Of a stretch of 24,934 nt of DNA, positions 974 through 7,919 are shown one piece after another. Under the pieces are notes generated by a model, which saw nothing but the letters and a program-made list of their open reading frames with translations, was not told the origin of the DNA and made no database searches. Made by a program: the position numbers and the translations under genes. The DNA is from Anaerolineae bacterium (GTDB lineage: Bacteria > Chloroflexota > Anaerolineae > Aggregatilineales > Phototrophicaceae): positions 1-24,934 of the forward strand of contig JACMMD010000833.1 of NCBI GenBank assembly GCA_014379235.1, in the 5' to 3' direction. Positions within the stretch are counted from its first letter, which is position 1. Each line of letters begins with the position of its first letter.

Positions 974-2104
974 TTAATTCGAGTTCGTGTCAAGTGATGG
1001 CAGCATGAAGGAGAAAGTTGTCAAGCCTGTCGATTCTTCCGAACGCGCAGTGAATTCGCCAGCGTGTGCCCGAGCTACCCAATACACAAAAGGGATGCCC
1101 ATCGCCACACTGGTTCGACTGCCCTTCTGCCTACCTTCCCAATGCGGGGCACGCAGAACGATTTGTTCCTCAAGTCCCGGTACAATGGCACGTCCGCTGT
1201 CTGTGAAACGAATCAAGATCATGCTGCTATCGGCCTGTGCGCTGACGTGCAGATGATCGCCTCGCATCGTAAACTTGACAACGTTGTCCAACAACGCAAT
1301 GAATGCCCGTTCGACCAAAGCGCTGTCGCAGATGGCAAGAAGACAGCCTGCGTCGGGCAAGGTGGTTTCAATACGTACAAACTTGGCTTCTAATAAGGGC
1401 TTCTGTGAAGTCAGCGCCTTCCGCAGCAGCAGGGTTAGATCGGTTTTCGAGAGGCGTAAATCAAATTCACCTGTTTCCAAACGGGCAAGATCGACTAAAT
1501 CACTGACGATATATAGTTGGCGATAGGCAGCGTCCAATGCGCCATGAAGCAACTGCATCATGTCAGCGTATTCATTCTGCATCACTTCGCTCATGCCGAA
1601 GATTGAGACAACCGCTTCCAGACTGCTAACAACGGTAGAAATCGGACTACGTAAGTCATGGCTGAGTAAGGCCGCCGCGCCGCGAACTTCATCTGGCGTG
1701 TCGCCAAGCAGTCGATGTGATATGGACACTGTGCCAATCTGATCGTCCGAATGCGGATTGGCTAACCATTGAGAGACCGCTGTCCAATCAAGGGGCTGAT
1801 CCATCACTACATCCGCGCCCGCCGAAAGTGCCGCCGCCATCAGCGTGGAATTCGTGAGATTGAGCGCCACAAGTGGAATTTGTGAAGCCGCGCATTTGAG
1901 CCGCCGACAGACTTCGATACCGTCGTATTCAGGGTTGGCGATTGCAACGAAAAACGCAGTAAGGGAATTCGCCCCTGCGAAGATCAGGGCTTCGTCTGAA
2001 GTTTGCAGCGAATGAAGTTCGTATCCAAGCCGTTTGAGGTTCGCCCGCAGCGGTTCGACTAGCTCTGGCGCACCGTTGCTCACCAAAATGAGGTTGGCGG
2101 TCAC
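974..2104 (-). CDS. Soluble hybrid: pseudo-receiver + HisKA + degenerate HATPase domain, 376 aa
   Basis: Receiver-like N-terminus lacks the phospho-Asp (FFVAIANP) and Lys (MDQP). H-box SHDLRSP is intact (His codon 1658-1660). N-box LLDNVVKF present; G1 is DSGRA and G2 is SVAMGI (degenerate). GTG start overlaps the upstream stop (GTGA). Confidence 0.85.
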   Translation of the reverse strand: MTANLILVSNGAPELVEPLRANLKRLGYELHSLQTSDEALIFAGANSLTAFFVAIANPEYDGIEVCRRLKCAASQIPLVALNLTNSTLMAAALSAGADVVMDQPLDWTAVSQWLANPHSDDQIGTVSISHRLLGDTPDEVRGAAALLSHDLRSPISTVVSSLEAVVSIFGMSEVMQNEYADMMQLLHGALDAAYRQLYIVSDLVDLARLETGEFDLRLSKTDLTLLLRKALTSQKPLLEAKFVRIETTLPDAGCLLAICDSALVERAFIALLDNVVKFTMRGDHLHVSAQADSSMILIRFTDSGRAIVPGLEEQIVLRAPHWEGRQKGSRTSVAMGIPFVYWVARAHAGEFTARSEESTGLTTFSFMLPSLDTNSN

Positions 2105-3141
2105 GCCAACAGCTCCACCACTTCATAAGCCATCACTGGCTCAGACCGTCCTTTGACCGTCAACGAGCCGATCATCTTGGCGTTAACTTCCTTGAGTACC
2201 CGCGCATAGGTCGCCTCGCTGACAAGGATTTGACTGCTGCGAGCCAGCCCTTGCAGCCGTGCTGCGAGATTGACCGTATCACCTACCGCCGTAAAATCCA
2301 TGATCTCTGATGTACCGACATTACCAACAACGGCCATGCCGCTATGGATACCGAAATTGATACGCATCCGGTAGCGCGCTTCAAAACCCTTGTAAAACTC
2401 TGGCAACGCCTCGCGGATGTCCAACGCCGATTTCACCGCTCGCAGCGCGTGATCGGATTGCTCTAACGGCGTATTGAACAACGCCATCACGCCGTCGCCG
2501 ATGAACTTATCTACTGTGCCCGCATGTTCCAAAATGATGCGAACAACCAGAGAATGATACATGTTGAGGATGCTCAACAGCTTTTCCGGTTCAGCGCGCT
2601 CCGAGATACCTGTGAAGTTTTCCAAATCCGTGAAAAGAACGGTCACTTCCTGCAAACGTCCACCAAGCGCAACTTGCGCTGGATTAGCCAGCAGTTGCTC
2701 AACCACCGCAGGCGAAACGAAACGCTCGAACGTGCTGCGGATCATTTGTTGTGTTTCACGCAGTCCATCGGTTTCAACCTTCGCGCGCAAACGGGTCTGA
2801 ATACGCGCCTTCAATTCGCGTGGATTAAACGGCTTCGTCAGGTAATCATCCGCTCCCGAACCCAAGCCCTGAACCCGCGCTTCAACATCGGCCATCGCCG
2901 TGAGCATCAACACCGGAATCTGCGCCGTAGCCGAATCACCTTTGAGAATCGCGCACACGGCGAAGCCGGACATACCCGGCATATTTACGTCGAGAATTAC
3001 AAGGTCTGGCAGCGCAGCCTGAGTGAGGGCGATTGTTTTAGGCCCATCTGCCGACTCGATTATCTCGTGCCCCATGCCCTCTAAAATATCTCGAATTAGC
3101 TGGCGGTTATCTTCGTTATCGTCAGCGACCAGAATCTTCAA
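2101..3141 (-). CDS. Response-regulator receiver + class III adenylate cyclase, 346 aa
   Basis: REC: ADD, ILDVNMP, LTA, TKP. Cyclase: VLFTDLENFT, DKFIGDG (adenine-specifying Lys), DFTAVGDTVNLAARLQ. TTG start with GAGG RBS. Confidence 0.93.
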   Translation of the reverse strand: MKILVADDNEDNRQLIRDILEGMGHEIIESADGPKTIALTQAALPDLVILDVNMPGMSGFAVCAILKGDSATAQIPVLMLTAMADVEARVQGLGSGADDYLTKPFNPRELKARIQTRLRAKVETDGLRETQQMIRSTFERFVSPAVVEQLLANPAQVALGGRLQEVTVLFTDLENFTGISERAEPEKLLSILNMYHSLVVRIILEHAGTVDKFIGDGVMALFNTPLEQSDHALRAVKSALDIREALPEFYKGFEARYRMRINFGIHSGMAVVGNVGTSEIMDFTAVGDTVNLAARLQGLARSSQILVSEATYARVLKEVNAKMIGSLTVKGRSEPVMAYEVVELLA

Positions 3142-3156
3142 AATCGTCCTCGTAGA

Positions 3157-3525
3157 TTAGCTGATGTATTTAGAAAGCTTGCTGGCTAACTCGCGCAAGT
3201 CAATTGGCTTGGAGACGTAATCATCGCAGCCTGCTTCTAAAGCGCGCTCACGATCACCAACCATCGCATGGGCGGTGAGCGCAATGATGGGGATATGCTG
3301 TAGTTCAGGGTCGGATTTAATCGTGCGCGAGGCCGTCCAACCGTCCATCAATGGCAGTGATAAGTCCATCAGGATAAGGTCAGGCCGTTCACTTGCTGCC
3401 ATCTCCACGCCCTGTTCGCCATCAAACGCCTGAACGATGTCATACTCCAACGACTGCAACACGTCCGAAATTAACGTCATGTTGTCAGGATTGTCTTCAA
3501 CGACCAGAATGCGCCCGTTACTCAT
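3157..3525 (-). CDS. Single-domain response regulator (DivK/CheY-like), 122 aa
   Basis: VEDN, ILMDLSLPLMDG, ALTAHAMVGDRERALEAGCDDYVSKP; all receiver catalytic residues are present. The TAHAM..D signature is DivK-like. Confidence 0.95.
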   Translation of the reverse strand: MSNGRILVVEDNPDNMTLISDVLQSLEYDIVQAFDGEQGVEMAASERPDLILMDLSLPLMDGWTASRTIKSDPELQHIPIIALTAHAMVGDRERALEAGCDDYVSKPIDLRELASKLSKYIS

Positions 3526-3527
3526 CT

Positions 3528-5039
3528 TTAAATAAAGTCTCCCCGGTTAATATTACAGCATCGAAACTGAGCGTCAACTGCTGGATACTCAATTAGCAAC
3601 CTCACAGGGCGCATTGCGGGTTCCGTTGTAGGCACATTTTGCGGTGGACTGACTGTAGGTAATGCCGCTTTTGAGTTTTCCGACATTGATTTCTGGTGCA
3701 CGGGCAGCGCGACAAAAAAGGTACTGCCCTCTCCGAGCGCACTTTTTACCCAGATCGACCCTTCATGTAATTCGATCAATTTTTTCGCAATCGCTAAACC
3801 TAACCCCGTGCCTTCAACATGCGCGGCGCGCACACTGTCGGCCCGCCCGAATTCCTCAAATATACGCGCTTGATCTTCGGGAGCGATGCCGATGCCCGTA
3901 TCGGTCACGGTAATGATAATCCAATTGCCATCGCTCAACCACCCGATAAAGGGCAGCTTAAAGGTTGTTGATGTCCCGCGCTCCACAAGGATCAAGATCG
4001 CGTCAATGGTGATTGACCCTTGTTGGGTGAACTTGATCGCATTCGTCAGCAGGTTCGTGAGTACCTGCTGAATACGCCCTTCATCGCCATACAGTGACGG
4101 TAAGCTCGGCTCGGCGTTGACCTTGATCGCCAGACCTTTACGTGTGTAATCCGCCTCGACGCCGATAACCGCTTGCTCAATGATACGCTCGATATGAAAA
4201 ACGCTGGTTTCAAGGTTGATGCGCCCGGTTTCGATCTTGCTCAAATCCAGTACGTTGTTAATAAGCTCCAACAAATATCTGCCGTTTCGATGAATTTTTT
4301 CAAGCCGGTCAAGCTGAGTTGCGTCCAATTCGCCATAGATGCCGCTCTGCAATAACTCACTGTAGCCCACGATAGAATTCAGCGGAGTACGCAGTTCCAG
4401 CCCCATATTGGAGAGAAACAGGCTCTTGGATTGGCTGGCCGTTTGTAGTTCCTGAGTCAAGCGCTCGACCAGAGTCTTCTGCCTCTGCAACTCGACAATG
4501 GCCTGCTGATGATTGCGTTGAGTGCCACGCGAGTCGTCGCTGACGCGGCTTAACGGCTCACGCAGATAGGTTTGCAGCGCAAACCGCGCTGTCCAACCTG
4601 CTGCGACTACGGTCAATATCTGGCTTATATTTGCCAGCAAATCGACAGGCATCCTGCTCCCAAATGCCGGAGTCAGAAGGAAATAGAACACATCAGCCAC
4701 CAGCGCGGCGATTAACAGCCCACAAAAAAGCTGTGTCCGTGCCGCTCCAGACATTACTCGCTCACTAAATCTGAACATCATCCAAGCGTAGAATACAACC
4801 GCTGCCCACAATGCTATCGACAACAGCCGCGCTGTGATTCCTATAATGCGGTCATCCAGCCGAAAGAGATACAGTGCTCCCCAGATCGCCAGCACAGCGC
4901 ACAGCCCCGCGAATAGACTGTGTGACCGCCAGCCTTCCGACTGGCCCCAAACGAGCAGCAGCGCACCGCCGGCCAATGCCAGAGTCAACAAACTTAGGAG
5001 CGCAACTATCCAACTAGTGAACCCTGAAAACAAGTCCAT
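3528..5039 (-). CDS. Membrane histidine-kinase-like sensor lacking the phospho-acceptor His (pseudokinase candidate), about 503 aa
   Basis: About 5 hydrophobic helices and a coiled coil. H-box reads FLSNMGLELRTPLNSIVG (His to Leu, codon 4398-4400). N (NLLTNAIKFT), G1 (DTGIG), F (IFEEF) and G2 (GTGLGL) are intact. ATG 5039 is preferred over TTG 5075 because a TATACT -10 lies at 5086-5081. Confidence 0.9.
   Translation of the reverse strand: MDLFSGFTSWIVALLSLLTLALAGGALLLVWGQSEGWRSHSLFAGLCAVLAIWGALYLFRLDDRIIGITARLLSIALWAAVVFYAWMMFRFSERVMSGAARTQLFCGLLIAALVADVFYFLLTPAFGSRMPVDLLANISQILTVVAAGWTARFALQTYLREPLSRVSDDSRGTQRNHQQAIVELQRQKTLVERLTQELQTASQSKSLFLSNMGLELRTPLNSIVGYSELLQSGIYGELDATQLDRLEKIHRNGRYLLELINNVLDLSKIETGRINLETSVFHIERIIEQAVIGVEADYTRKGLAIKVNAEPSLPSLYGDEGRIQQVLTNLLTNAIKFTQQGSITIDAILILVERGTSTTFKLPFIGWLSDGNWIIITVTDTGIGIAPEDQARIFEEFGRADSVRAAHVEGTGLGLAIAKKLIELHEGSIWVKSALGEGSTFFVALPVHQKSMSENSKAALPTVSPPQNVPTTEPAMRPVRLLIEYPAVDAQFRCCNINRGDFI
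3550..3577 (-). promoter_or_regulatory. Candidate internal sigma70 promoter for the response regulator, inside the kinase 3' end
   Basis: Minus strand TTGACG (3577-3572), 16-nt spacer, TAATAT (3555-3550), then GGGGAG upstream of the ATG at 3525. Confidence 0.4.
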
Positions 5040-5112
5040 AACAAGCGTACCATTCGTCCGCACACATGGCCACAAACCATAGTATATATTAAGCCAGCTT
5101 TACGCACATCTC

Positions 5113-5189: not shown

Positions 5190-5477
5190 CTAGGGCTTCA
5201 AACGCCGGACGTTATCCGCTTCTAGCGTATCGGGCTGGCTGCGCTTGGCCCCCTTGCGATCAGGGGCGCGTGTCGGCTCAGACTCACCGATGAGCGCTTC
5301 GATACGCATCACCGCTTCACGGTCAAATTCCTGGAAGCCGCATACATCACACGTCCATAACAGCACATCGGGAACGCTGACCGGCATGTTACCGATCATC
5401 CGCATGTACGTCGCCTGCGAGGGCTGGTAATGACCGATATGACAGTATGAGCACACGTAAGGCGATTTGTCGGTCAT
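5190..5477 (-). CDS. YgiT-type zinc-finger protein (stand-alone, no HTH), about 95 aa
   Basis: CSYC...CDVC pairs with the 'VSVPDVLLWTCDVCG.QEF' pattern. ATG 5477 follows a GGAGAGG RBS; the ORF track starts at 5510. Confidence 0.8.
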   Translation of the reverse strand: MTDKSPYVCSYCHIGHYQPSQATYMRMIGNMPVSVPDVLLWTCDVCGFQEFDREAVMRIEALIGESEPTRAPDRKGAKRSQPDTLEADNVRRLKP

Positions 5478-5502
5478 TTCGTCCTCTCCATTCATGAAGT
5501 AA

Positions 5503-6138
5503 CTAGTCATCAGGGTAGGCGATGTGGGTTACAAGTCCCCACTCTGACGGCGGCCAATAACGGACAAGCGCCTCGCCAACGATAAACTGCCGGTTTACCG
5601 TCCCGAAAGCGCGCGAATCGCTGCTATGGTTACGGTTATCGCCCATAACGAAATATTCATCCGGGCCGAGCGTCCACACGTCATCACGGCAGCGTCCGGG
5701 TTCGCAAGGTTCATTGATATAGGGTTCATCGAGCTGGACATCGTTTACATACACCAGCGTATCGCGGATTTCGACAGTATCGCCCGGCAGACCAATCACA
5801 CGCTTAATGTAATCTTCTTCGGGATTGCCCGGATAATGGAAGACCACAATGTCGCCGCGCTGCGGCTGGTCAAGCAGATAGTTCAAACGACTGACAATCA
5901 AGAATTCGCCCGTATGGAAGTTCGGCTGCATACTGGGGCCTTGAACGATGAAACGCGCACTGGCCAAATTCACCAGCGAATAGATCGCGGCGATCAGCAC
6001 CAGCGTGTCGATGATTTCACGCATAAAGCTGCGACGCTGGAGTTTAGGGCGTGGCGTCGTCACTTCGGCAGTGTCCGCATACTGCTGCGGTGCTTGAACT
6101 TGCGGTTGTGCAGTCGGTTGGGTTGAAATTTCTTGCAA
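5503..6138 (-). CDS. lepB: Signal peptidase I, 211 aa
   Basis: One TM helix, GPSMQP (catalytic Ser), RGDIVVF, YIKRVIGLPGD (catalytic Lys), GDNRNHSSDSR. TTG start. Confidence 0.96.
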   Translation of the reverse strand: MQEISTQPTAQPQVQAPQQYADTAEVTTPRPKLQRRSFMREIIDTLVLIAAIYSLVNLASARFIVQGPSMQPNFHTGEFLIVSRLNYLLDQPQRGDIVVFHYPGNPEEDYIKRVIGLPGDTVEIRDTLVYVNDVQLDEPYINEPCEPGRCRDDVWTLGPDEYFVMGDNRNHSSDSRAFGTVNRQFIVGEALVRYWPPSEWGLVTHIAYPDD

Positions 6139-6347: not shown

Positions 6348-7919
6348 TTGGCTGGTGAACGAATTCTAGTGGTTGATGACGGACGCGAAAACCGCGAATT
6401 CGTGGTTGAATACGTCCTGCAACCCAACGGCTATGAAGCGCTTGTGGCGAAAGACGGCAGAGAAGGTCTCGATATGGTGCTTAAGCATCAGCCTGACCTC
6501 ATTCTGCTTGATTTGCAAATGCCGCGCATGAACGGCATCGAAGTGTTGCAAGCGTTGTCCGAACGTAATCTCGATATTCCCGTTATTTTGATGACTTTTC
6601 ATGGCTCGGAAGAGGTCGCCATCGAGGTTTATCGACTCGGTGTGCGCGACTATGTGAAGAAGCCCTATTCGGTGGACGAAATGCTGGCGGCCATCGAGCG
6701 CAGCCTGACCGAAATCCGACTGCGGCGTGAGAAAGAAGCGCTTACCGAGCGCGTTATCTATGCCAATCGTGAACTGCAACAGCGGGTTCAAGAACTCAAC
6801 GTCCTCTACAGCGTCGGTAAGAACGTCACCGCTTTAGCTGACCTGAACCAACTGCTGCCCAACATCGTCGATGCCGCCGCGCAAGTCACCCACGCGGAAG
6901 AAGGCTACCTCTACCTGACTGAAGAGACGATATTACGCTGTCGGGCGCAGAAGCGTGTGAACAAGGCCCGCGCCGAAGCCGCCGACTTTGAAGCGAAAGA
7001 CCGTATCGCGTTACACGTCGCGCAGACGGGGCAAGCGATGATGCTCAATCCTGAACAATTGAACACCAGCGGCGTGGTTTCGCTGTCGTACACGCCGCTG
7101 GTGTTCCGCGAAAAGGCCATCGGCGTACTGGGCGTGCGAACCGTCACTGAAGGCGGGCACATCTTCACCAAGCACGACAGTGCCCTGCTGAGTGCCCTGT
7201 CTGATTACGCCGCGATTGCTATCGAAAATTCGCACAACTTCGAAGAACTGCAAAAGACCAGAGAGCGTGAAAGCGCGCAAATCCGCAGCACGTTCAAGCG
7301 CTTCGTACCGCCCTCTGTCGTAGACCGCGTGCTCGATCATCCCGAAACTTTGGAGCTTGGTGGCGCGCGGCAAGAAGTCACGATTCTGTTCGCGGACATT
7401 CGCGGTTACACCGCATGGGCCGAACATGCCCCGCCCGAACAGGTCATTGAAGTCCTGAACAATTACCTGAGTCTTGCCGCCGAAGTTGTTCTGGCGTGGC
7501 AGGGTACGCTGGATAAGTTCTTTGGCGATGGGCTGATGGCCATCTTCAACGCGCCCGATCAACAAGAAGACCATGCCATCCGTGCCGCTGTCGCCGCATT
7601 AGACCTTATCAGTGTGGCGAAAGAAATGTCCGAACGGCGCGGTTACAGCCTGTCGTTTAGCGTGGGACTGCATCTGGGCGAGGCTGTCGTCGGCTACGTA
7701 GGCACGGCGCAGGCCATGAACTACACCGCCATTGGCGACGTAGTGAACCTCGCCAAGCGGATTCAAGAACATGCCGCGCCGGGCCAAATTCTGATCACCG
7801 ACACCGTGCATGAACAGCTTGGGGAATTGGCGACCTCGCAACCGCTTGGTCAGCTCAAATTCAAGAACCGCCAACAGCCAGCAACAGTGTACGAGTTACA
7901 AGACATCAAGAACGACTAG
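6348..7919 (+). CDS. Receiver + coiled coil + GAF + class III adenylate cyclase, 523 aa
   Basis: REC: VDD, LLDLQMP, MTFHG, KKP. GAF: IVDAAAQVTHAEEGYLYL...PLVFREKAIGVL...LSALSDYAAIAIEN. Cyclase: LFADIRGYT, DKFFGDG, NYTAIGDVVNLAKRIQ. TTG start with GAGG RBS. Confidence 0.93.
   Translation: MAGERILVVDDGRENREFVVEYVLQPNGYEALVAKDGREGLDMVLKHQPDLILLDLQMPRMNGIEVLQALSERNLDIPVILMTFHGSEEVAIEVYRLGVRDYVKKPYSVDEMLAAIERSLTEIRLRREKEALTERVIYANRELQQRVQELNVLYSVGKNVTALADLNQLLPNIVDAAAQVTHAEEGYLYLTEETILRCRAQKRVNKARAEAADFEAKDRIALHVAQTGQAMMLNPEQLNTSGVVSLSYTPLVFREKAIGVLGVRTVTEGGHIFTKHDSALLSALSDYAAIAIENSHNFEELQKTRERESAQIRSTFKRFVPPSVVDRVLDHPETLELGGARQEVTILFADIRGYTAWAEHAPPEQVIEVLNNYLSLAAEVVLAWQGTLDKFFGDGLMAIFNAPDQQEDHAIRAAVAALDLISVAKEMSERRGYSLSFSVGLHLGEAVVGYVGTAQAMNYTAIGDVVNLAKRIQEHAAPGQILITDTVHEQLGELATSQPLGQLKFKNRQQPATVYELQDIKND

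Follow-up and report, generated by a model that had tools for sequence, protein, structure and literature searches.

The stretch of DNA analysed here, referred to as the window, comprises 24,934 nucleotides (nt) of contig JACMMD010000833.1 from an Anaerolineae bacterium of the Chloroflexota (assembly GCA_014379235.1). Its first 5.1 kb contain four co-oriented genes on the minus strand, which encode in this order a sensor histidine-kinase homologue (HK-A), a single-domain response regulator (RR), a predicted adenylate cyclase with an N-terminal receiver domain (REC-cyclase) and a second histidine-kinase homologue (HK-B), as listed in Table 1. The layout of the open reading frames (ORFs) agrees with the tight spacing described in the first-pass annotation of this DNA, that is, intervals of 2 nt and 15 nt followed by a 4-nt overlap, in which the start of HK-B lies across the stop of the cyclase. 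HK-A has 515 amino acids (aa) when read from the TTG at 5075, and 503 aa from the ATG at 5039 chosen by the ORF finder. Scans for promoters and terminators gave nothing above shuffled expectation. The two kinase homologues, each of which departs from the canonical histidine kinase in its own way, are the main subject of what follows.

Table 1. Features of the operon and of its surroundings, in window coordinates
Feature	Position	Strand	Basis or remark
HK-A, seven-transmembrane (7TM) sensor histidine-kinase homologue without phospho-acceptor His	3528-5075	-	ORF, translation, Pfam
HK-A H-box FLSNMGLELRTPLN	4377-4418	-	Leu226 (codon 4400-4398) in place of His; Glu +1 and Thr +4 retained
HK-A catalytic ATP-binding (CA) domain, canonical N/G1/F/G2 boxes	3696-4088	-	Pfam HATPase_c
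RR, single-domain response regulator, 122 aa	3157-3525	-	translation, Pfam
REC-class III adenylate cyclase (predicted), 346 aa	2101-3141	-	Pfam, alignment to solved cyclases
HK-B, pseudo-receiver, dimerization and histidine phosphotransfer (DHp) domain with His149, remodelled CA domain, 376 aa	974-2104	-	translation, Pfam, family alignment
HK-B pseudo-receiver, residues 1-115	1760-2104	-	without acidic pair (SN), Ala at phospho-Asp position, without Lys
HK-B His149 codon	1658-1660	-	only HisKA-type phospho-acceptor His in the operon; SHDLRSP aligned to KdpD H-box
HK-B G1 box DSGRA	1187-1201	-	family consensus DxGR; last Gly in 0/52
HK-B lid motif GSRTSVAMGIPF, replacing G2 GxGxGL	1088-1123	-	alignment to KdpD
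Zinc-ribbon-like ORF, CxxC...CxxC, 106 aa	5190-5510	-	translation
REC-GAF-adenylate cyclase, 523 aa, divergently oriented	6348-7919	+	Pfam; syntenic in f1 relatives

HK-A matches HisKA (3.3e-17) and HATPase_c (1.9e-29, residues 330-460) in Pfam. In alignment with solved kinases, its H-box reads NMGLELRTPLN where these have NMSHE(I/L)RTPLN, so that the phospho-acceptor His is absent, while the Thr at position +4 (L-E-L-R-T) and the ATP boxes are present in canonical form: N box NLLTNAIKF, G1 DTGIG, F IFEEF and G2 GTGLGL. The earlier description of this protein as a kinase with full ATP boxes and no His is therefore upheld by the alignment at Leu226 and by these boxes. A sequencing error as the source of the change from His to Leu was rejected: the two adjacent codons GGG CTG at 4403-4398 both differ, each is at least two base changes away from Ser or His, and the Gly-Leu (GL) pair occurs in three independent assemblies. 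The metagenomic orthologues P0016 (85% identity) and P0017 (78%) share this GL H-box, and their cytoplasmic core hardly varies. When 132 HK-A homologues were aligned, the His column contained H in 128, L in three (all from the clade of the window) and Q in one.

In the tree, the clade of HK-A has a long stem (0.97) and falls inside a group of 69 non-hybrid 7TM kinases, each about 510-530 aa in length. Moreover, the helix that follows its H-box, RTPLNSI[IV]GYSELL, is that of the His-bearing orthologues paired with the orthologous RR-cyclase. By descent as read from these comparisons, HK-A is derived from an ordinary His-bearing 7TM kinase. A direct origin as a REC-less descendant of the 7TM hybrid kinase linked to related clusters was also considered and found unsupported, since HK-A nests among the non-hybrid 7TM kinases; its C-terminal tail is unconserved.

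The selection acting after the loss of His can be read from L038, the source of one of the two metagenomic orthologues and a near-identical strain with the same operon, in which the flanking genes differ from those of the window at a proportion of synonymous sites (pS) of 0.03-0.05 and the DNA of the RR is identical. Between the two, the DHp domain of HK-A has 12 synonymous changes and one non-synonymous change (ratio of non-synonymous to synonymous proportions, pN/pS, 0.025), and the CA domain has 12 and four (pN/pS 0.10). The His-less core of HK-A is under purifying selection, and pseudogene decay is rejected on this ground. The membrane sensor half is mosaic (window 4545-5039, minus strand, against L038:2407-2920), with 64% aa identity and a pS of 0.53; set against the flanking values and the identical RR, this suggests that the sensor domain was exchanged by recombination as an allelic replacement.

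The RR matches Response_reg at 2.2e-29, with acidic pocket, Asp54, Thr and Lys intact, and it is 64-76% identical to the cyclase-adjacent RR of the related loci compared. The product of the third gene matches Response_reg (2.6e-28) and Guanylate_cyc (7.5e-27), and its best solved relatives are adenylate cyclases (CyaB, 3r5g, 5.4e-32). The positions of the metal-binding Asp, Lys, Asn and Arg are aligned with those of CyaB, and FTD, KFIGDG and GDTVNLAARL are conserved. By these residues, it is predicted to be a class III adenylate cyclase with an N-terminal receiver, its substrate specificity being read from the alignment. Both receivers, that of the RR and that of the cyclase, have the full set of phospho-acceptor residues.

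In HK-B, Pfam finds HATPase_c (1.1e-09) and HisKA (2.9e-06), while Response_reg appears under the cut-off (1e-4). Its N-terminal domain has SN at the acidic pair, Ala at the phospho-Asp and Gln at the Lys; among 52 distinct HK-B sequences, the phospho-Asp position is D in 25, E in nine, N in five and A in four, and the Lys is present in none. The N-box Asn is present in the protein of the window. At the G2 position, SVAMG stands where KdpD has GVGLG, and the lid of the whole family follows the consensus R..G.R[TS]SV[AG].G.PF. His149, D150 and P154 are invariant in 52/52 sequences, as are the Lys-Phe of the N box, the Asp and Gly of G1, two Arg of the lid, the [TS]-S-V and the P-F. The first glycine of G2 is found in 0/52 members. 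Thr or Ser stands at the place of the Mg-binding Asn in 16/52 (31%), among them all members of the f8 type, while 36/52, including that of the window, keep the Asn. The first-pass annotation was thus right about the intact His149 and the non-canonical lid, and the departures from the canonical kinase in HK-A and HK-B are both real. Because the motif is conserved across the 52 sequences, the lid is, on the alignment, rebuilt and conserved rather than decayed.

A profile built from 19 members separates the family cleanly, true members scoring at least 187 bits and ordinary kinases at most 164 bits; all true members have the lid motif and lack GxGxG. A scan of 1.84 billion representative proteins gave only about 20-25 clusters at 50% identity that have the lid motif. 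Orthologues are placed downstream of the RR and cyclase genes, and this holds for at least five families within the order. By profile and distribution, HK-B is a small, old and distinct family. Within NCBIfam no model specific to it was found, and NCBIfam and the protein atlas gave only generic kinase names. The AlphaFold2 (AF2) model (predicted local distance difference test score, pLDDT, 83.8) has an ordinary REC-DHp-CA fold with helices at 137-170 and 180-210. A Foldseek search with this model returned LvrB (8vc9) as best match (E 8e-16), together with DivL, HK853, RetS and KdpD, a set in which kinase and phosphotransferase are not separated. Members of 250-262 aa without the pseudo-receiver occur in genera g4 and g25 (L034:7106-7894, L042, L044, L046, L048, L050, L051 and L054), and because these have only the two remaining domains, the DHp together with the remodelled CA looks like the functional core of the family.

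Of the 301 genomes of the order that were sampled, 143 have a strong match (E<=1e-75) to the REC-cyclase, in nearly every case a single one. In all, 115 loci were fetched and 111 scored for the genes around the RR-cyclase pair. In most loci the cyclase is immediately preceded by the RR, and the donor genes vary. For the gene directly upstream of the RR, the entry was none in 36 loci without HK-B and in 24 with it; a non-hybrid His-bearing kinase in 23 loci without HK-B (with four more at contig ends); a hybrid kinase in 12 loci with HK-B; and a non-hybrid kinase without His, together with HK-B, in two loci, the window and L038. Thus, HK-B follows the cyclase wherever the gene immediately before the RR encodes a hybrid kinase (12/12 loci) and nowhere that this gene encodes a non-hybrid His-bearing kinase (0/23); the latter arrangement was also seen at P0023 and P0025. 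A third contig, carrying P0007 and P0017, has the gene order of the window, and the four-gene arrangement is confined to the one shallow clade formed by the window, L038 and this contig.

In the family f1, the flanks of the different arrangements are alike, with a signal peptidase and a small ORF upstream, and because of this the arrangements are taken, by synteny, as versions of one locus. In the tree of the cyclases, HK-B alone is present in the basal f1 clades, a later group has either a direct kinase or nothing, and the window stands at the base of this later group, its branching there being unresolved. The window looks like a transitional state that keeps both the kinase and HK-B. In genus g40, the kinase at the locus has been lost outright in several genomes. 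A single Hpt (histidine phosphotransfer) domain was found in the genome of the window, which is 86% complete, and a search of the same genome for an orthologue of the cluster-linked hybrid kinase gave only generic hybrid kinases.

The loss of His in the HK-A type of kinase is not a single event. It has occurred at least five times, with L (window), L, Q, I and Y as the replacements. The other His-less H-boxes at the locus read GQKLRTP (Gln), AIKLRTQ (Ile) and GYF[VI]RTP (Tyr, in two genomes), and the independent Leu, GLQLRTP in family f2, belongs to the third gene upstream of the RR, which is not adjacent to it. The Gln variant at least is a recent tip event, its sister cluster P0070 being still His-bearing. 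The f2 protein of L080 (genome G160), a 7TM kinase of 506 aa at 869-2389 of the oriented locus with the H-box GLQLRTPLS, is 72% identical to the His-bearing P0121 and is followed in its cluster by a hybrid kinase and a normal kinase. The Tyr kinases (GYF[VI]RTPLN) are 344-aa ORFs upstream of the RR in L066 and L071 of genus g40, with one N-terminal transmembrane helix; they adjoin the RR and REC-cyclase, are 62% identical to each other in aa sequence and have all ATP boxes intact.

All five His-less lineages retain Thr +4, G1 and G2, and the acidic residue at +1 is lost in all of them except HK-A of the window, which has Glu. In proteins of the HisKA type, the kinase but not the phosphatase reaction depends on the acidic residue next to the His, and the phosphatase but not the kinase reaction depends on the Thr or Asn at +4 (PMC3510030), so that the loss of the one and the retention of the other are what would be predicted for a shift to a phosphatase-only or RR-binding role. 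A family profile search, with the best matches fetched, found no HK-B member in the five genomes that have the other His-less kinases; a hidden HK-B was rejected there, the best matches being ordinary REC-kinases with canonical G2 that score 131-153 bits against the at least 187 bits of true members. By gene content, the Tyr proteins are thus a stable, DivL-like state without any partner able to lend a His.

All enzymatic activities in the operon, and the direction in which phosphate would move, are inferred as follows from the observed sequence states, conservation, selection and gene contexts. The core would be the RR and the REC-adenylate cyclase, with the output of cyclic AMP (cAMP) set by phosphorylation of the cyclase receiver. 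HK-B, through His149, would be the cognate His partner of both receivers; it would take phosphoryl groups from the RR or from hybrid-kinase receivers and hand them to the receiver of the cyclase. Such hybrid kinases are encoded in cis in the sister families and elsewhere in the genome of the window. HK-A is a 7TM sensor that cannot itself be phosphorylated. It retains the helix for docking of the RR, a nucleotide pocket and, at +4, the Thr of the phosphatase reaction, and most likely would act either as a signal-gated phosphatase of the phosphorylated RR and cyclase receiver or as a DivL-like sensor of the phosphorylated RR, in both cases pulling the relay down. The role of HK-A is read from these three retained features in the absence of the His. 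That of HK-B is read from the conserved His, the missing phosphate loop, the company of hybrid kinases in the sister families and the single Hpt of the genome; on these grounds, HK-B is somewhat more probably a histidine phosphotransferase of the histidine-kinase fold, similar to ChpT, Spo0B or PhyK/LovK, than an autokinase with an odd lid. The combined reading, in which HK-B is a relay hub and HK-A a phosphatase-type or DivL-like pseudokinase and both steer cAMP synthesis, has about an even chance of being correct. The phosphatase or sink pair that the first-pass annotation had offered as its second choice, and its comparison with DivL and DivK, fit these data well.

Several observations weigh against this relay with a pulling-down partner. 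The adenine-binding Asp, the N-box Lys and D150 are all retained in HK-B, as is the ordinary length of the lid with its invariant Arg and Ser/Thr, and among HisKA proteins an acidic residue next to the His is required specifically for kinase activity (PMC3510030). These retained features fit a residual autokinase or another nucleotide ligand; at lower odds, the Arg/Ser/Thr lid might bind a non-ATP nucleotide, for example the product of the cyclase, as feedback. As for HK-A, what the His itself does in the phosphatase chemistry of HisKA proteins is a matter of debate (PMC7005713), and the Leu variant could for this reason be a poor phosphatase, and HK-A alone among the His-less variants has kept the Glu at +1. 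The link between hybrid kinase and HK-B comprises only 2-3 phylogenetically independent contrasts, is largely family-level structure and is reported with no claim of significance, and at the 24 loci with HK-B and no kinase nearby a source of phosphate is not apparent.

The nearest competitor is a push-pull arrangement, in which HK-B is a genuine autokinase in spite of its lid and phosphorylates the RR and the cyclase, while HK-A is a dedicated, signal-regulated phosphatase. The invariance of the G1 Asp and Gly, of the N-box Lys and of D150 speaks for it, the last being the kinase-specific acidic residue (PMC3510030), as do the Mg-binding Asn of the 36 members that include the window, the loci at which HK-B is the sole kinase-like gene beside the RR-cyclase pair (24 in number), and the fact that its nearest fold matches, such as LvrB, are active kinases. 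However, the G2 glycine loop that holds the phosphates of ATP is absent from all 52 members and the second glycine of G1 is never present; the Mg-binding Asn is gone from nearly a third of them, with every f8-type member among these; and in ordinary kinases, mutations in G1 or G2 abolish ATP binding (as used in PMC5964349). An autokinase of this kind is rather unlikely, though a serious rival. It is far less likely still that HK-A is a decaying or neutral remnant, redundant beside HK-B and with no function of its own. Such an end would be in keeping with the outright loss of the kinase in several g40 genomes and with the recent Gln variant beside its His-bearing sister cluster P0070; yet three lineages, at 78-85% identity, have an intact HK-A ORF in which the cytoplasmic core hardly varies, selection after the loss of His has been strongly purifying in both DHp and CA, and the Tyr variant has persisted to 62% aa identity with its ATP boxes intact.

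The proposal of the first-pass annotation itself, a complementary split kinase, does not fit the data as a co-evolved pair and is weakened by them. Here the ATP domain of HK-A would phosphorylate His149 of HK-B in trans, either within a heterodimer or between dimers, and HK-B would feed the RR and the cyclase receiver. The defects of the two proteins are indeed complementary at the level of motifs, the ATP boxes of HK-A are under purifying selection despite the missing His, and the clade of the window is the sole case in the 111 loci where an RR-adjacent non-hybrid kinase occurs together with HK-B, the kinase there being His-less; moreover, CheA3/CheA4 and an EnvZ split in vitro prove the principle (PMC3591291). 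What speaks against it is co-conservation, the very check that had been proposed: the lid state of HK-B is ancient, more than 40 of the loci that have it contain no HK-A-like partner, and His-less kinases occur without HK-B in five genomes, where the four other versions have nevertheless kept their ATP boxes. The predicted synteny holds in exact order for the window, L038 and the P0007/P0017 contig and does not extend beyond them, so that the pair is co-conserved only within that clade. In addition, the DHp of HK-A is 49-68% identical to those of His-bearing relatives and has the same post-His helix, whereas the cluster kinases share only 22-31% with the DHp of HK-B, and the HK-A gene gave no match to the latter (DHp_B); these comparisons show no sign of a heterodimer. 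Folding two copies of each DHp together, in order to compare homo- and heterodimers, gave a score of 0.00, which carries no weight either way. Because the defects differ in age, because each is widespread without the other and because the pair is limited to one shallow clade, the split kinase is kept as an improbable reading. If it were true, it would be the first natural split HisKA kinase, a HisKA-type counterpart of CheA3/CheA4, and a transition between relay-type and direct two-component input would have been caught in evolution.

Among the known systems, the Caulobacter network of DivL-DivK and CckA-ChpT-CtrA,CpdR is the closest to the favoured relay. DivL, a kinase without the His, reads a single-domain RR (PMC4211667), and ChpT is a phosphotransferase of the histidine-kinase fold that does not bind ATP (PMC3433190). 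In Caulobacter as here, a His-less HisKA pseudokinase stands beside a single-domain RR, and one variant of the present locus even has the Tyr of DivL; a protein of the kinase fold with conserved His and non-canonical ATP domain, here HK-B, would occupy the position of the phosphotransferase; hybrid kinases stand upstream, here in the sister families; and there are two receiver-containing acceptors. HK-A has the HisKA fold, a replaced His and maintenance under selection that make up the DivL type, the GL being fixed in three orthologues, and its link to the 122-aa RR is one of gene adjacency. However, no sequence orthology exists beyond the shared domains, and the likeness is analogy and not homology, with the interactions here read from genes. 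DivL has Tyr and PAS domains, HK-A has Leu and a 7TM sensor; helices close the pocket of ChpT, whereas in HK-B a pseudo-receiver is present and the lid, with its conserved Arg and Ser/Thr, has the usual length; and the output is a transcription factor in Caulobacter, but an adenylate cyclase in the operon. The single-domain RR MrrA passes phosphate to PhyK and LovK even when G1 or G2 of these proteins is mutated (PMC5964349). Like the role proposed for HK-B, theirs is that of kinase-like phosphotransferases below a single-domain RR with dispensable ATP binding; unlike HK-B, which is of the HisKA type with a naturally remodelled lid, they are HisKA2/HWE proteins with canonical G boxes.

For the split CheA3 and CheA4 of Rhodobacter sphaeroides, complementation was shown biochemically, and HisKA-only proteins were predicted (PMC3591291). 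There, one partner lacks the phospho-acceptor and the other lacks kinase capacity, which in the present pair is seen at motif level only. The Rhodobacter proteins are of the CheA type, divided into P1 and P3-P5, with whole domains missing, whereas HK-A and HK-B keep all their domains, and their defects arose at different times in a pair that is not co-conserved. LvrB (8vc9) is the prototype of a Rec-controlled histidine kinase, with phosphorylatable Asp56, ATP binding and autophosphorylation (PMC13269768). Its REC-DHp-CA architecture is that of HK-B, but the receiver of LvrB is functional and its ATP is bound, whereas the receiver of HK-B has no acidic pocket or Lys family-wide and the G2 is missing; a phosphorylatable receiver that controls a kinase, as marks the LvrB type, is thus not found in HK-B. 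RetS (6dk7/6dk8), which is among the top fold and sequence matches, is also a kinase fold that acts other than by classical autophosphorylation; unlike the present proteins, it is a hybrid that targets another kinase, GacS, and a complex of HK-A with HK-B, or of HK-B with a kinase, is putative here.

In the cyanobacterial CyaC, receiver, kinase, receiver and cyclase are joined in one protein, and transfer from the kinase His to the cyclase-adjacent receiver activates cAMP synthesis. This domain set is that of HK-B and the REC-cyclase taken together; CyaC is a single polypeptide, whereas here the genes are separate, the order is opposite and the lid is remodelled.

The features of the locus fall within known kinds, namely pseudokinases and phosphotransferases of the histidine-kinase fold. 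A literature search nevertheless found nothing specific on this arrangement in Chloroflexota, and no paper was found on the HK-B family with its rebuilt lid, on repeated loss of His in one orthologous kinase, or on the swapping of inputs around a fixed output of RR and REC-cyclase; the HK-B family is apparently undescribed. His-less pseudokinases and kinase-fold phosphotransferases are known from few model systems, mostly Alphaproteobacteria. In uncultured Chloroflexota of the Anaerolineae type, the locus provides a natural series for comparison, in which one conserved output (RR and REC-adenylate cyclase) is combined with inputs that are swapped between a direct kinase, a relay of hybrid kinase and HK-B hub, and pseudokinase versions in which the His was lost at least five times. 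It is also a protein set with which one can ask when a kinase fold stops being a kinase, what role the ATP pocket has in a His-less kinase, and how a phosphorelay controls cAMP.

Some neighbouring genes deserve mention. The zinc-ribbon-like ORF at 5190-5510 is 99% identical to its counterpart in L038, the only sequence with which it was compared, and searches of Pfam and NCBIfam with it gave no match; in family f1, an ORF of 95-106 aa occupies the same slot, between an S26 signal peptidase and the signalling genes, and it may be part of the module. The second, divergently oriented cyclase at 6348-7919 could be a further acceptor of the same phosphorelay.

The slot after the RR-cyclase pair is filled otherwise in some families. 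In f4 it holds a 380-aa protein with a GAF domain (L129:7538-8683 and L135:7538-8680), the N-terminus of which is receiver-like by eye, without a Pfam receiver match, and which in L129 has a weak HisKA-like C-terminus (E 3e-4, under the cut-off). In f2 the slot holds an MscS-type channel (L099:7604-8794). Downstream of HK-B in L026-L029, of families f5 and f3, lie a protein of about 175 aa, a REC-ParA/MinD-type ATPase of 364-375 aa and a REC protein of about 280 aa, and from the composition of these larger clusters, the relay may be linked to a positioning ATPase.

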